From positions 1-43,564 of the forward strand of contig JAVCCJ010000058.1 of assembly GCA_030765585.1 (NCBI GenBank): DNA of 43,564 bases. Direction: 5' to 3'. Positions 13,004-39,813 of this stretch are shown here, one piece after another. A program made the position numbers and the translations under genes. Position 1 is the stretch's first letter; each line of letters opens with the position of its first letter. A model generated the notes under the pieces. That model worked only from the letters and a program-made list of their open reading frames with translations. It had not been told where the DNA came from and made no database searches. This DNA comes from Candidatus Zapsychrus exili. Its GTDB lineage: Bacteria; Omnitrophota; Gorgyraeia; Zapsychrales; Zapsychraceae.

Positions 13004-13735
13004 TCACTCCTTCTCTTCTTCGTTATTTTCTTCAACATTTTCTATAACATCGGATTCTTCTGCCTGCTTTTCTTCTGTTTGCTCAGTCGCTTTTTCTATT
13101 TCTTCAATTCTTGATTCCTCGTCTTTTGGTTCTTCAATATTTGTCAAATCTTTTTCTTCTTCTGGCAGAAGATCAGAAAATTCTTCTAATTTTGGCAAAT
13201 CTTCTAATGACTTAAGTCCAAAATATTCCAAAAACTGTCTTGTAGTTCCATAAAGATACGGCTTACCTGGTACATCTTTACGACCAACAATTTTAATAAG
13301 CTCTTTATCTAATAAATTTACAACAACTCCATCAGAATTAACGCTTCTTATATTCTCTATGTCAGATCTCGTAACAGGCTGCTTATATGAAATGATGGCT
13401 AAAGCTTCTAACGCTGGCTTTGACAATTTTTCTTTATGTTTCGTTTTATAAAAGTCTTTTATATAAGAAGCATAGCTCGAATTACTTAACATTTGATATC
13501 CGCCTGCTATTTCCACTATTGTCATTCCAGCATTTTTTTGTTCATATTCATCCTGCAATACTTTAATAGTTTTCTTTATCTCAGATGGAGTGACTGTCTT
13601 AATAACTTTCTTAAATTGATCTAAAGTTATAGATTTCTCGTTAACAAACATTAACGCTTCAATGGCACCTCTTACATAATTAGACTGTTGTTGATCTGTA
13701 TTAGCAGCTGTGTTATCAATTGTTTGATTTTCCAT
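13004..13735 (-). CDS. scpB: SMC-Scp subunit ScpB
   Basis: IEALMF, LSKPALEALAIISYKQPVTR, YGTTRQFLEYFGL; acidic tail. Confidence 0.96.
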   Translation of the reverse strand: MENQTIDNTAANTDQQQSNYVRGAIEALMFVNEKSITLDQFKKVIKTVTPSEIKKTIKVLQDEYEQKNAGMTIVEIAGGYQMLSNSSYASYIKDFYKTKHKEKLSKPALEALAIISYKQPVTRSDIENIRSVNSDGVVVNLLDKELIKIVGRKDVPGKPYLYGTTRQFLEYFGLKSLEDLPKLEEFSDLLPEEEKDLTNIEEPKDEESRIEEIEKATEQTEEKQAEESDVIENVEENNEEEKE

Positions 13736-22786: not shown

Positions 22787-23962
22787 ATGGAAGAAAGTAT
22801 TTACACAGATAAAGAGTCTTATCAAGAAAAGTTTCAGAGAGCTCAAAGAGACCTAGCAGTTCTTTATGAAGTCAGCAACGCTATGCGAACGACTCTTGAC
22901 CTTAATCATGTACTATATATCATTCTTACTGGCGTAACAGCTCATACTGGTCTAGGCTTTAATAGGGCTACATTATTTCTAGTTAATGAAAAAGATCAAC
23001 ATTTAGAGCCAAGGATGGCGATAGGTCCTGAATCAGGCGAAGATGCACAAAGAATCTGGTATAACATTCACGAGTACAATCATGGGCTTGATGACCTGAT
23101 TAAAAAAGAAAAACTTAACGAAAATATAAACCAGTCAACACTATACAAATCTATCAAGCAATTAAAGATACCTCTCTCTGAGGACAATCTTCTATCAAAA
23201 GCATATCATTCAGGAGTTCCAACACACATAACTCAAGACCAAATTTATCAATACTCAAGCGATAGATTTTTACAAGTATTTCAAACAAATGCTCTTGTTA
23301 TTATGCCTCTTAAAAGAAAAAACAAGGTAAACGGGCTTATTGTTGCTGACAACCTTTACACTCAAAAACCTATCTCTGAAGACGATCTTAAAATATTTGT
23401 TATGCTTGCAAACCAAGCTGGACTAGCCATTGAAAACTCAAGACTATACGAAATGACCATTCACAAAAGTCGGACTGACTCTTTGACATCATTATGGAAC
23501 CATGGGTATTTTCAAGAAGAGCTTACTAAACAAATAGAGATACATAATAACAATAAAAATCAACTAAGCCTTCTTATGATAGATATGGATAACTTTAAGG
23601 GCTTAAATGATGAGTATGGACATCAATACGGAGATACCATACTAAAAGAAATTGCTATGATTTTAAAAGACTCTTCTAGGGATGATGATTTCGTCTGTAG
23701 GTATGGTGGTGAAGAATTCTCTATAATCTTGACACAAACAAACAAAGAACAAGGATATGCTATTTCTGAAAGAATTAGACGAAAAATAGAAAAAAAAGAG
23801 TTTAATAAACCAAACTCGGAAGAAAAACTTCATGTATCTGTTAGTATTGGACTATCTACTCTTCCCGATGATGCAAGCAACAAAGAAAATCTAATATCCA
23901 GATCAGATAAAGCAATGTATATCGCAAAATTTAGCGGAAAGAATCAGACAATTACAGCTTAA
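22787..23962 (+). CDS. GAF-GGDEF diguanylate cyclase
   Basis: DMDNFKGLNDEYGHQYGD, I-site RDDD, RYGGEEF; N-terminal GAF. Confidence 0.93.
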   Translation: MEESIYTDKESYQEKFQRAQRDLAVLYEVSNAMRTTLDLNHVLYIILTGVTAHTGLGFNRATLFLVNEKDQHLEPRMAIGPESGEDAQRIWYNIHEYNHGLDDLIKKEKLNENINQSTLYKSIKQLKIPLSEDNLLSKAYHSGVPTHITQDQIYQYSSDRFLQVFQTNALVIMPLKRKNKVNGLIVADNLYTQKPISEDDLKIFVMLANQAGLAIENSRLYEMTIHKSRTDSLTSLWNHGYFQEELTKQIEIHNNNKNQLSLLMIDMDNFKGLNDEYGHQYGDTILKEIAMILKDSSRDDDFVCRYGGEEFSIILTQTNKEQGYAISERIRRKIEKKEFNKPNSEEKLHVSVSIGLSTLPDDASNKENLISRSDKAMYIAKFSGKNQTITA

Positions 23963-24044: not shown

Positions 24045-27000
24045 TTAAACTCCTACTGCCACTTCTTCTTTCTTTCCCTGTTTTTTATCCTCAGAAAACT
24101 TAACAGAAACAATTCTGGAAATTCCTGTTTCTGGCATAGTAATTCCATACATAACATCAGAGATAGCTATTGTCTTTTTATTATGTGTTATCACTATAAA
24201 CTGTGCTATTTTTGCAAAGTCTTTTAAAAGATAGCTAAACCTATCTACATTTGCCTCATCTAATGCAGCATCAATTTCATCAAGCACACAGAATGGGCTT
24301 GGATTAACCTTAAACACCCCAAAAATAAGTGCTATCGCTGTAAGAGTCTTTTCTCCACCAGAAAGCAAACTAATGCTTTGTGGTTTCTTCCCAGGAGGTC
24401 TTGCTACGATATCAATACCGGACTCCAAGACATTGTCTGGGTCGAGCAAGACCAACTGGGCTTCTCCTCCTCCAAAGAGCATTCTAAAATAAATTCTAAA
24501 CTCTTCGCCAACCTTAGTGAATGTATCCATAAACATTCTTCTAGTTGAACGATTTATTTTGTTTATAGTACTCATCAATTGTGATTTCGCTTCTATCAAA
24601 TCACTTTGTTGCTTCGTTAAAAATTCAAATCTCTCTTTTAATTCTTCATATTCTTCAATAGCAACTAAGTTAACACTTCCATAAGAATCACATCTTTTCT
24701 TAAGTTTTATAAGACCATTACTAGCTTCTTCTATGTCTATGTCGTCTTCTTCTAGCAAAAACTCGCAATTAAACACTTCTTCTTTTTTAACAGGCGCTTG
24801 TGTTTCTTCTTGTAGCTCCCCCTGTGATTCCAGTTGTGGACCCTCTAAAGGTCTTAGATGAGGTCCATATTCTGGTCCTAGTTCAGCATCGCTTACTTCT
24901 TTCAATTGCTTATCTTGAGCAGCAACCTCTTCCTGCGATTCTTCTCCCTTAGCTTCTTGCAAGACATCTAAAGCAACCTGCCTTTCTGACTCTTCTCTTT
25001 CTAATCTTTGCTGTTTAGCTTTTTCTAGAGCTTCATCAAAATCCATTTTATATGTCTGAACAAGACGATCTTTTATACTCTGAGACTTAAATGAAAATTC
25101 TTGTTCATTAAGCTCCTGACCATGTCTTTCTTGTTTTAGTTCATCTAATTTAGTTTCTAGTTCTTTCATTCTAGAACGAGAATTATTTATACTTCTTCCA
25201 ACTTCTTCCTTTTGAATTTCTTGCTCAGATAAAACAACTCTTAAAGAGTCCTTCTTTATTTTTACTTCTTCGTTTTCAACGCTTAATTTTTCTATCTCTC
25301 TTCGATATTCTTCGTTCTTCGCACCATAACCTGAATACTCATCCTCTATTTTCTTTATTTCTTCAAGCCAACTATCTAAGGACTCCGAAAATGTTGTTTC
25401 ATTATCTTGATTTACTCTCAATTTATCTCTTTGAGAGTTAAGCTCTGTTTCAAGCTGAGCAATAGACACCGTAACGTCTTCTTTTTCTTTCATCTTTTGA
25501 TTAATAGATTCTTGCCCGCCCTTAATTGCATTCTGCCCTGAACCTATGTCTTGATTGACGGTATCAAGCTGATAATTTATTTCTTCTTCTTTCTTTCTTG
25601 TGCTAGAAAGAAGTTCTCTTACTTCTTCGGTTTCAGAATCAACTAACTCTAATTCTCCTGATAATTTATTAATTTCTTCTAATACATCTATTTTTTGAGA
25701 TTCTAAAATTGAATAATCTTTTTCTTTATTCTGAAGATCCTCTATTATTCTTCTTAAGATATTCATTTCATCTTCAATTCGTGCCTTAAGATTCTCTGCT
25801 TGTGATAATAATTGAACTATTTCTCTTTCGATTTCTTCCATTTGAGAAGATATATTCTGAGGGTCTAGTTCAATAAACTTTGTTTCACAAATAACCTCAA
25901 ATAAACCCGACAAATTACTAATCTCTTCTACTCTATAACTTAAGCTCTTTTTAAGAGTCTCGAATTTTTCGGAGCTGAGGGGCAAAACTTCTTTGACCTT
26001 ACCAATAATCCCGGTATGATGCTCCAAAGGTGGTGCTTGCGTTATGAATCGCCCCTCAACTACTGGATCCGGCATGTCTTGATACTGGACATGCAGCTTC
26101 TCTATAAACTCTTTCTGCGACTTAAGAAAGAGTTTCTTTTTATCTAATGTATCAATTGATTCTTCTACCCTAGCTAAATCTTCTCTCAATCCATCTATTT
26201 GACTTCCCTTGTTTTCTTTTTCTAAATCTAACTCACCTACAACAATCTTTAATCCATTAATTTGACCTTCAACGCTTTCAAATTTTTCATTTATATCTCT
26301 TTTTTCATCTAAGACCTTTTGATTTTCTATTTCTAATCTCTTCTTTCTTGCTAAAGCACCCTGCATTTCTTTAATAACGTCAGTAAGCTCATTACGAAGG
26401 TTGACTTGTTTAGATGTTAAAACAAAAATTCTTTCTTCAGTTTCTTTTATTCTTGATCTTTCGCTCTCTATAGCTCTTTCTATTCTAGATAAATTATCTC
26501 TTTTATTAAAAAGTACACTCTCATCTTCCAAAATTTTTTCATTTAAGAAAATAGTATCTTGCCTTAACTCTTCAATCTTTGTTTGTTGATTTTTGCAGCG
26601 CTCTATTAGTTGCTCTTTTTGTTCCTCCAACTTCTCTGCGTTCTTAATCAAATTGTCAATACGCTCTTCATTAAACCCAATCTGCCTACTATTTAAATCA
26701 ATTTGACTCTCAAGCTTTATATCCTCAGATCTAATATCACCTATTTTTTCATCAATCTCACCTAGATGATTAATTTCATTCGTCAAAGTCTCTGAAACTT
26801 CATCAATACCCAAATCAAATTGAGATTCTTTCTCTCTAATAGACGACAACCTTTCGCCTAAAGTGCTTTTTTGTCTTTGTATACCACCTAATTGATTCTT
26901 TGCTACTCTTAACTCAAGTGTCTTTAATTTCTCAAATTCACCTTTATATTTTCTTGCCTTATTAGCTTGACGCTCTATTGAACCTATTTGCCTTTTTACT

Positions 27001-27599: not shown

Positions 27600-27773
27600 C
27601 TATTCCTGGTTGCTATCAAGCCAAGCATCTATTTTTTCTTTCTTAAATCTCCATTGACCAACAGTTTTAATGGCAGGGATCTTTCTCATCTTTACCCATT
27701 CGTAAATAGTTCTCCTCTTTACGCGTAGGTAATCAGCAACTTCGTCTATTGTCATTAGTTCTTGAAATTGCAT
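27600..27773 (-). CDS. 57-aa excisionase/BldC-like HTH (HTH_17) DNA-binding protein
   Basis: Not in ORF track: MQFQELMTIDEVADYLRVKRRTIYEWVKMRKIPAIKTVGQWRFKKEKIDAWLDSNQE; AGGAG RBS; stop 9 nt before smc ATG. Confidence 0.92.
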   Translation of the reverse strand: MQFQELMTIDEVADYLRVKRRTIYEWVKMRKIPAIKTVGQWRFKKEKIDAWLDSNQE

Positions 27774-27845
27774 TTCTGTGTTTCTTCTCCTCTGGTAAGT
27801 AAGCGTTAAGTTCTGACATTCAAGTTTCGCAACGTCGCAATAAAC

Positions 27846-27874
27846 AATTTATTACATATCTTTACACTTGTCAA
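27846..27874 (-). promoter_or_regulatory. sigma70 promoter of HTH-smc
   Basis: TTGACA-17bp-TAAATT. Confidence 0.65.
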
Positions 27875-27980
27875 CACTTTTGTCACTTTTTTTCTGTATT
27901 AGCCTAGATTAGACTATTATCGACTATTTACATCAACATCATATCGTTTAAATCACTTTAAATCAATTGTAATTCTTTGT

Positions 27981-28080
27981 TTTACATTTACTTACATTTA
28001 TTACCATATATAGCTTATCTTTGCATATACTTACATAAAGTTACATATACTAACATATGATGACATATTATGACATTAAA
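27981..28080. repeat. 10-bp-period direct repeat array (core ACAT)
   Basis: tttACATtta cttACATtta ttacCATata tagcttatct ttgCATatac ttACATaaag ttACATatac taACATatga tgACATatta tgACATtaaa. Confidence 0.85.
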
Positions 28081-38820: not shown

Positions 38821-39813
38821 TTACTCTAGCACAAAATGCCCTTCAGTGCACTCGATCAGCTTAGAACCTAGACTTAAAACAATCTCTTTTTCGCGTTTAA
38901 TTGCCTTGTAGTCAATAGCAGCTGACAGGAGTTCTTTGGTGTAATCGTGCATTGGATTATTGAATATCTCATCTGAGTTTGAATACTCAACAATTTTACC
39001 TTTGTACATTACAGCAATTCTGTCACATATTTTTCTAATAACCCTTAAATTATGAGATACAAACAGATACGTAACATTAAATTGCTTTTGCAAATCTAGC
39101 AATAAATCCAAAATCTGTTGTTGAATAATAACATCTAAAGATGATACTGCTTCATCTAAAATAAGCAGCTTTGGATTCATTACAAGCGCACGCGCGATTG
39201 CAATCCTTTGACGCTCACCACCTGAAAATTCGTGAGGATAACGATCTAAAATATCTGTTGGCAATTTAACGGCCTTTAGCATCTCAATTATCTTCTTCTC
39301 TACAACCTCTTTGTTTGTCATCTCTGTACCCGCGCTTGTCATCCCTGTACCCGCGCTTGTCATCCCTGCGAAGGCAGGGATCTCCTTCAGAGAATCAGCA
39401 GGCTTAATTTCTGAGATTCCTGCTCGCCTCGAGTCGAAGCCGCGGGCCTTCACAGGAATGACAAATGTATTATTCACCGCGCTTAATCCTTCAGAGATAA
39501 TATTTCTAACAGTAAACCTTGGATCAAGACTACTGTAGGGGTCTTGAAAAACCATTTGAACATTTGAGCGAAAATTCTTAAGCTCAGCACGTTTAGCGTT
39601 TGTCAAATTCTCTCCATCAAAAATAATTTCTCCAGCGTCCAAAGACAAAAGTTTAATTATTACTTTTGATAAAGTTGTCTTGCCGCATCCAGACTCACCA
39701 ACAAGACCTAGATTCTCCCCTTCTTTTATTGAAACAGTAACATCGTCAACAGCCTTTATCGTAGACTTTTGTTCCTTAAAATATTTTTTTATGTTTTTAA
39801 GCTCTAGTAACAT
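38821..39813 (-). CDS. oppF: oligopeptide ABC transporter ATPase (OppF/DppF-like) with in-frame repeat insertion
   Basis: GESGCGKTT, QMVFQDP, FSGGERQR, ILDEAVSSLD, SHNL. Confidence 0.9.
   Translation of the reverse strand: MLLELKNIKKYFKEQKSTIKAVDDVTVSIKEGENLGLVGESGCGKTTLSKVIIKLLSLDAGEIIFDGENLTNAKRAELKNFRSNVQMVFQDPYSSLDPRFTVRNIISEGLSAVNNTFVIPVKARGFDSRRAGISEIKPADSLKEIPAFAGMTSAGTGMTSAGTEMTNKEVVEKKIIEMLKAVKLPTDILDRYPHEFSGGERQRIAIARALVMNPKLLILDEAVSSLDVIIQQQILDLLLDLQKQFNVTYLFVSHNLRVIRKICDRIAVMYKGKIVEYSNSDEIFNNPMHDYTKELLSAAIDYKAIKREKEIVLSLGSKLIECTEGHFVLE
39315..39465. repeat. GTCAT-type palindromic element with 21-bp tandem units inside oppF
   Basis: (TTGTCATCYCTGTACCCGCGC)x2, TTGTCATCCCTGCGAAGGCAGGGATCTC, and inverted GAGATTCCTGC...CAGGAATGACAA. 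Confidence 0.9.

Follow-up and report, generated by a model that had tools for sequence, protein, structure and literature searches.

We found that the smc gene of Candidatus Zapsychrus exili stands directly behind a small gene, hth, whose product resembles the winged helix-turn-helix (wHTH) protein BldC. Comparison of related genomes makes it probable that a BldC-like head-to-tail filament on the operator of hth itself sets the transcription of the hth-(acp)-smc operon, ahead of a condensin with a strongly reduced hinge (mini-hinge). The window, 43,564 nt long, is the whole of contig C85 in a 2.04-Mb assembly of 129 contigs that is 96% complete.

On the minus strand, the genes for an acyl-CoA dehydrogenase, etfB and etfA are followed by a 515-bp spacer (71% AT), hth and smc (Table 1). 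A preliminary description of this DNA had placed a 57-aa HTH_17 gene 9 nt ahead of smc, and this was confirmed, with 9 nt to the smc ATG and a PF12728 match at E=1.7e-18. The terminator scan found 0 sites between etfA and hth. Rfam gave no credible structured RNA match on the locus (one at E=0.42), and the leader RNA folded no better than its shuffles (z=+1.17). A GAF-GGDEF diguanylate cyclase gene (22787-23962, plus strand) converges on the 3' end of smc, likewise in many relatives. Elsewhere in the window, a 21-bp tandem repeat (2.6 copies, 96% match) lies inside an ABC-transporter gene (39315-39368).

Table 1. Features of the hth-smc locus and of scpB in the window
Feature	Position	Strand	Remarks
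HTH_17 gene (hth), first gene of the operon	27600..27773	-	57-aa BldC/Xis-like winged HTH; PF12728
smc, 1181 aa	24045..27590	-	TIGR02168, 828 bits versus cut-off 567
scpB, Smc partner subunit	13004..13735	-	10 kb from smc, outside the operon
Distal array block 1, six 10-bp direct repeats, coding-strand core ATGT	28020..28079	-	-202 to -152 from the start of the -35 hexamer; PWM 6.6-9.4 per unit
Distal array block 2, a degenerate pair of units and then a strong pair (-123, -113)	27981..28019	-	1-bp shift versus block 1
Promoter-overlapping phased units, at -12/-3, +7, +17 and +27 from the -35 start	27841..27889	-	second-best site of the genome
Predicted sigma-70-type promoter of the hth-smc operon, TTGACA-17-TAAATT	27846..27874	-	10/12 consensus match
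Smc mini-hinge, about residues 505-577	25860..26078	-	three beta-strands, with a helical loop that is dispensable; GX6GX3GG-type motif absent
Acidic variable insertion in the C-terminal arm, joint position	24666..25055	-	130 residues versus 39-54 in canonical relatives

The linkage of hth to smc is kept in relatives. HTH orthologues of at least 65% identity were found in 43 of 61 related genomes, and smc lay downstream of hth in 30 of 30 fetched loci, 17 of which have an acyl carrier protein (ACP) gene in between. Among 80 Omnitrophota database loci, a set that overlaps with the 30, smc follows hth in 78 and the remaining two end within 302 nt. The gene upstream of hth in relatives is usually fabV or etfA. 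At 96 bits or more, orthologues occurred in 35 of 201 genomes sampled over the phylum, all from a single class, within which they are confined to this order and to a second group of families. The gene therefore does not belong to the core set of the phylum; its named relatives come mostly from Candidatus Omnitrophota. Orthologues share 65-85% identity, and the synteny is fixed across two orders. One contig titled as a Woesearchaeota bin (L060) has an hth promoter, ATGT offsets and a gap that match an Omnitrophota locus (L059), and by this likeness it is probably mis-binned. The hth-less locus of another relative (L153, G038) retains the promoter and an apparent decayed ACP gene ahead of smc.

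The ACP is a distinct one (GMDSMMALE, serine kept). It is encoded between hth and smc in 38 of the 80 loci (L003, L006, L207 and others), is still found beside smc in some hth-less genomes, and is absent from the present genome. In most of the 21 other-order loci listed, the ACP family sits among fab-like genes of a second such cluster, as read from N-terminal sequences, and 7 of the 9 genomes with the ACP beside smc keep a KAS of 53-60% identity elsewhere. The pair AcpP-MukB is a precedent for an ACP as an SMC cofactor (PMC9449133, in the part available), and our sequence comparisons did not support such a role for this ACP.

The HTH protein is a MerR-like wHTH alone, with neither a coiled coil nor an effector domain. 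It scored above the cut-off of TIGR01764 and below that of the BldC family NF033787 (30.3 versus 77 bits), and 22 columns are invariant across 30 orthologues. The structure model was a wHTH (pLDDT 86.8). Its top Foldseek rows were BldC (6AMA/6AMK, TM ~0.74, E 2e-3), followed by RacA (5I44), the Pukovnik Xis and RdfS (8DGL at TM 0.82, 4J2N at TM 0.73); no row of this search reached E ≤0.001. According to the accessible portion of PMC5859096, the BldC dimer involves L11, E16, F21, R22, V23, W31, I40, T42, L43 and G44. These align to L6, E11, L16, R17, V18, W26, I35, T37, V38 and G39 of the HTH protein, so mapped that the residues of the hydrophobic head-to-tail interface with its Glu-Arg bridge are present; five of the mapped residues are invariant in the 30 orthologues and three are at least 90% conserved. 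From this mapping and the model, the protein appears capable of BldC-like polymerisation. The BldC readout residues Arg30 and His46 correspond to E25 and W41, and because the base-reading Arg30 is E or D here, the DNA motif is not derivable from BldC. With this replacement and a score far below the cut-off, the protein is not a BldC orthologue, though it probably works like BldC. MAD1 of the MADS defence system (NF047737) was rejected as an identity, at 75 versus a cut-off of 80 bits, with smc and etfA as neighbours and no mad cluster.

About 10 units of 10-bp period had been described at 27981-28080. The periodicity was borne out: lag-10 identity was 0.67 (z=6.5, 0 of 2000 dinucleotide shuffles), the z at lag 20 was 3.9, and TRF returned period 10 with 7.8 copies (27982-28058). 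The stretch ranks first of 6 windows with 10/11-bp periodicity in the 2.04-Mb genome. The number of units had to be revised to eight good ones (six at 28020-28079, two at 27981-28000) and two degenerate ones, the two blocks being out of step by 1 bp. The coding-strand unit is WWWATGTHAW. When the genome was ranked by a matrix built without this window, the distal array was the top site, with a score of 48.1 against 12.6-18.3 for the tops of the wrong-spacing nulls (six units). The promoter units came second; the distal array was the only site clearly above the null, and the scan for further arrays yielded no other such locus. Tandem arrays of 10 or 11 bp with unrelated units, away from HTH_17 paralogues, were observed at C49:21314, C121:2117 and C7:1094.

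Four phased ACA units had also been reported over the promoter. They are present at 27844, 27854, 27864 and 27874, and only one of them is an ACAT. Taken alone, their 40-bp stretch, which was picked after the fact, gave z=3.0 (9 of 2000 shuffles), so the support for these units comes from conservation and not from their own periodicity. The evidence for the promoter is likewise its conservation, because the promoter scan found 3 sites where 4.4 were expected.

A promoter of the form TTGACA-17-TAnnnT was found in 30 loci (one call doubtful), with T,T,G,A,C of the -35 hexamer in 29-30 of 30 and T,A,T of the -10 hexamer in 30 of 30, the anchor being chosen by the same consensus whose conservation is counted. 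In 29 loci (L027 dropped), 92 of 142 upstream ATGT words had an offset of 7 or 8 (mod 10) from the -35, with a best period of 10.0. None of 10000 random-offset trials reached this lock, and the same was true of sites beyond 90 bp, in a test that kinship among the genomes inflates. In a second, overlapping set, 149 of 231 ATGT had these offsets. The array offsets most used in relatives are -123/-122, -113/-112 and -103/-102.

The array is also lost together with hth. We compared hth-bearing loci with a set of 30 genomes without an orthologue or outside its range, 23 of which yielded an smc locus. At least two phased units were found in 45 of 76 hth-bearing loci versus 0 of 21 hth-less smc loci, where kinship again inflates the test, four hth-bearing and two hth-less loci were dropped as too short, and the spacer median is 190 nt with hth and 66 nt without. 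By a strict count, 26 of the 76 hth-bearing loci have no phased pair. The best three-unit score was 5.6-27.4 in 28 hth-bearing and at most 4.5 in 16 hth-less loci, with a PWM whose hth-bearing training loci overlap the test set and two promoter calls of hth-less loci falling in coding DNA. A motif-free test separated the groups less well (lag-10 p ≤0.05 in 13 of 25 hth-bearing versus 2 of 7 hth-less loci). In the second order, or group of families, the array consists of 2-3 units at -25/-15, just outside the -35 and the spacer. Units at these places fit activation as well as repression, and the sign of control may differ in that group.

A second conserved chromosomal HTH_17 gene, a paralogue with 46% identity (C48:52164-52322), heads a pilM operon and served as an independent control. 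Over its TTGACA-17-TCTAAT promoter lie TAAG-type units with a phase of 10 bp, at offsets 9, 19, 29 and 39 (L197, L296-L315), and the ATGT array is absent from 21 of 21 pilM-linked loci. TAA-type units at offsets 9/29/39 were present in 19/16/17 of the 21 paralogue promoters versus 0 of 29 smc-linked promoters. Conversely, TG[TC] at offsets 8/18/28 was present in 12/19/16 of the 29 smc-linked promoters versus 0/0/0 of the 21. This double dissociation indicates that each paralogue has its own phased motif over its own promoter. Operon-leading autoregulators of BldC type may be a lineage-wide design.

The preliminary description had proposed a filament on the phased repeats with autoregulation. 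Comparison of genomes lent this support, through gene order, the promoter and the register locked to it, array loss with hth loss, the paralogue's own motif and the conserved BldC interface. We infer that the HTH protein binds the array and that hth and smc are co-transcribed. The small wHTH protein would then be an operon-leading autoregulator of BldC type. Its monomers would line up head to tail on the 10-bp ATGT repeats, one for each helical turn, and the distal block would nucleate a cooperative filament in register with the promoter. This filament would reach, or loop to, the units across the -35/-10 spacer and thereby set hth-(acp)-smc transcription, most simply by a negative feedback that buffers the Smc dose.

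Binding of the HTH protein to the array is a prediction from comparison, and an unlinked factor might bind there instead, with hth merely the regulated first gene. The genome holds 8 further HTH_17-like matches, and by eye a relative without hth (G052) keeps a few phased ATGT-like units. However, the array is lost with hth while the promoter and smc remain, and in the same genomes the paralogue's promoter carries another motif, which makes this reading very improbable.

The HTH protein may instead be a broader BldC/Fis-like regulator or architectural protein, for which the array is only the strongest site and which also controls lineage-variable genes for surface and secreted proteins. This reading is compatible with autoregulation, and we consider it unlikely. 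Among 30 fetched loci with the pattern, 20 contain hth, one stops at a contig end after fabV, and the other 9 (8 sites) are located elsewhere. In relative G207, an ATGT array with a shared flank recurs at least four times before genes for very large proteins, and several other off-locus sites precede secreted or autotransporter-like genes. BldC sites, too, escaped bioinformatic prediction (PMC6428758, as far as excerpted). On the other side, no other site in the present genome exceeded the wrong-spacing null. Intergenic two-unit sites were in slight excess (10 of 18 versus 1-7 at other spacings), and two of them are this locus while some were mis-masked. A conserved second array after pgpA was rejected, since no more than 2 of 30 genomes had a high score at the site beside pgpA. 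A small and variable HTH regulon is possible on these comparisons. The modules of G207 (L241 and L244, on its contigs C11 and C6; at least four) consist of three ATGT units and then the shared flank AAACAATTCTGTGTGTC, between tandem genes for very large proteins. They may be either secondary targets or cassettes resembling recombination sites.

The autoregulatory reading was also weighed against a decayed prophage or ICE attachment site, part of a replication origin, and mere noise in AT-rich DNA. The nearest PHROG to the HTH protein is an excisionase family, one off-locus pattern match lies near smpB and an integrase fragment, and the spacer is rich in AT. Nevertheless, these readings are hardly tenable and largely refuted. 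The absence of an integrase nearby, as described earlier, was upheld: there was none among the 26+17 window ORFs scanned, and the 10 genomic PF00589 matches are all off this contig, while three HTH_17 paralogues adjoin integrases. The identity of the orthologues and their fixed synteny over two orders also speak against a mobile element, and the location of dnaA on C77 against an origin. Shuffle and reversed-pattern controls were negative; across the order, the three-unit pattern matched 33 times, in 26 of 168 genomes, versus 3 times for the reversed control. An Xis or recombination directionality factor was rejected from the lack of a PF00589 match on C85 and the constant position of smc, and an oriC at the array because dnaA, parB and parS are all on C77.

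The smc gene had been called atypical, and our results agreed. The Walker A, LSGGE, Walker B/D-loop and H-loop motifs of the head are intact, and this Smc has no match to the hinge family PF06470. Of the 201 phylum genomes, 125 gave such a match, whereas just one of the 35 with an HTH orthologue did, there on another contig; none of the 120 homologues listed carried it. Between fixed anchors, the hinge measures 63-89 residues in 32 sequences versus 179-196 in 12 canonical ones, whereas both groups have arms of 326 and 263 aligned residues (327 in one case). The variable insertion of the C-terminal arm adds about 90 extra acidic residues in this Smc and, inferred from its position, lies at the Smc joint. 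In a head-only tree (45 rows, midpoint root), the 32 mini-hinge Smc formed one clade (98/99). Because hth-less members are scattered within this clade, the hinge change does not depend on hth.

In the monomer model the arm apex forms three strands, placed with moderate confidence (pLDDT 53-79 in this part). A two-copy hinge model scored 0.54, the best control 0.00, and the mark of 0.54 was reached with 20 of the 30 solved pairs and with 1 of the 23 single chains; its runs shared at least 53% of contacts with pLDDT of at least 66, and the best-placed contacts lay between the three strands, at residues 513-517, 527-532 and 564-569. The modelling supports a new dimer interface through the mini-hinge strands. 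Foldseek with the hinge fragment gave no match at E ≤0.001, its results being dominated by coiled coils, and the VIA rows for this fragment spanned the arms. We lean towards a Smc-ScpAB whose hinge is of a new kind, about 60-80 residues with intertwined beta-strands and without the canonical hinge surface. A 981-aa Smc in another genome (L250, G092:C10:34300-38000) has about 27 apex residues and shorter arms. In the tree it is sister to canonical-hinge Smc, and a PF06470 match is absent in 5 of the 7 genomes of its family; by sequence it is a separate hinge loss. Smc proteins of about 1630 aa from the second order (L095, L127, L129) have a long insertion just after Walker A, the end of which presumably resembles an intein C-terminus motif.

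The preliminary description had alternatively suggested a centromere-like or Smc-loading site, at which the HTH filament recruits or organises the mini-hinge Smc. Each genome has one dominant array, all 35 orthologue-bearing genomes of the phylum sample come from reduced-hinge families, with the PF06470 pattern given above, and RacA is among the fold neighbours of the HTH protein. RacA has an anchoring domain, and the 57-aa protein is without a spare domain. The proposal was not supported and is improbable. A canonical parB (C77:7992), two matches to the parS consensus (C77:6954 and 6989) and dnaA (C77:3408) are clustered on a contig other than that of the array, and scpA is on contig C87. The array follows hth and not smc: a mini-hinge-type smc locus is kept without hth in 14 genomes of the same order, and in at least 7 aligned genomes the mini-hinge Smc persists without hth where the array is gone. 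A centromere role is disfavoured because parB, parS, scpA and scpB lie elsewhere and smc persists without the array. Moreover, one would expect an operator, and not a centromere, to keep a fixed register with the -35. Several origin-clustered, promoter-independent sites would mark a centromere, and we found one promoter-locked locus above the null, on a contig other than that of dnaA and parB in this 129-contig assembly.

Both ScpA and ScpB are encoded, and this smc is the sole one found in the genome. The protein is the genome's Smc-ScpAB condensin, it is probably loaded by ParB/parS, and its reduced hinge is predicted from the models still to dimerise. In B. subtilis, ParB recruits Smc through the joint, according to the sections of PMC9449133 seen. 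Further still, the HTH filament and the mini-hinge Smc might be one evolved module, in which the BldC-like protein sets the Smc dose and acts as a life-cycle switch or as a DNA-side partner that couples the condensin to surface and giant-protein genes. We give this only a small chance, and the coupling is speculative.

Several elements of this picture are known already, in the portions of the literature available to us: wHTH filaments on phased repeats (BldC), self-repression by HTH_17 proteins (RdfS) and hinge-less SMC variants (marine Actinomycetes). Streptomyces BldC (PDB 6AMA/6AMK) has the chromosome-segregation operon smeA-sffA as a target (PMC5859096, PMC6428758, both in excerpt). Like BldC, the HTH protein appears as a stand-alone MerR-like wHTH with the head-to-tail interface kept and direct repeats one turn apart over a promoter. 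Unlike BldC as excerpted there, it has a 10-bp ATGT unit in place of the 9-bp AATT-N4-C, and one dominant site at its own operon, where it leads smc, in place of a large regulon. RdfS is an HTH_17 head-to-tail oligomer that binds and represses its own promoter (PMC11963761, partial text). The HTH protein shares the HTH_17 fold with RdfS and Xis, which form such oligomers; in contrast to what that text describes, its gene is chromosomal and vertically inherited, without an integrase or element, and it lacks the N-terminal helix of RdfS. The available part of PMC5859096 has RacA binding GC-rich palindromes as a symmetric dimer. The wHTH fold and the link to chromosome segregation recall RacA-ram, whereas the repeats here are AT-rich and direct and occur at one locus, and the protein has no extra domain. 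A paper on histones (PMC11390915), judged from the part seen, was unrelated.

As in the Smc-ScpAB systems with ParB/parS outlined in the parts read of PMC9449133 and PMC5526789, the head motifs, arm lengths, scpA, scpB, parB and parS are present. It differs from canonical Smc-ScpAB in its shortened hinge without a glycine motif, the variable insertion at the joint position and the dedicated regulator ahead. A 'hinge-less' SMC clade has been reported from marine Actinomycetes (PMC12153180, consulted in part). Both are SMC-family proteins with no recognisable hinge domain or zinc hook; compared by description, ours is from another phylum and has a conserved three-strand remnant and a predicted dimer. 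An engineered hinge-less Smc still dimerises through its arms (PMC5526789, in excerpt). We found no account of an hth-smc operon or a mini-hinge in the literature searched, which took in few subscription papers. Nor was a dedicated transcriptional control of smc described in that literature, and our sequence comparisons suggest such a control here.

The significance of the locus rests as much on the hinge as on the array. The two BldC-like paralogues with different predicted 10-bp operators are a ready pair for the DNA-reading rules of a large, mostly unannotated family. A natural condensin with only a third of the usual hinge, but with unchanged arm length and head motifs, allows the part of the canonical hinge in DNA loading and loop extrusion to be tested directly.
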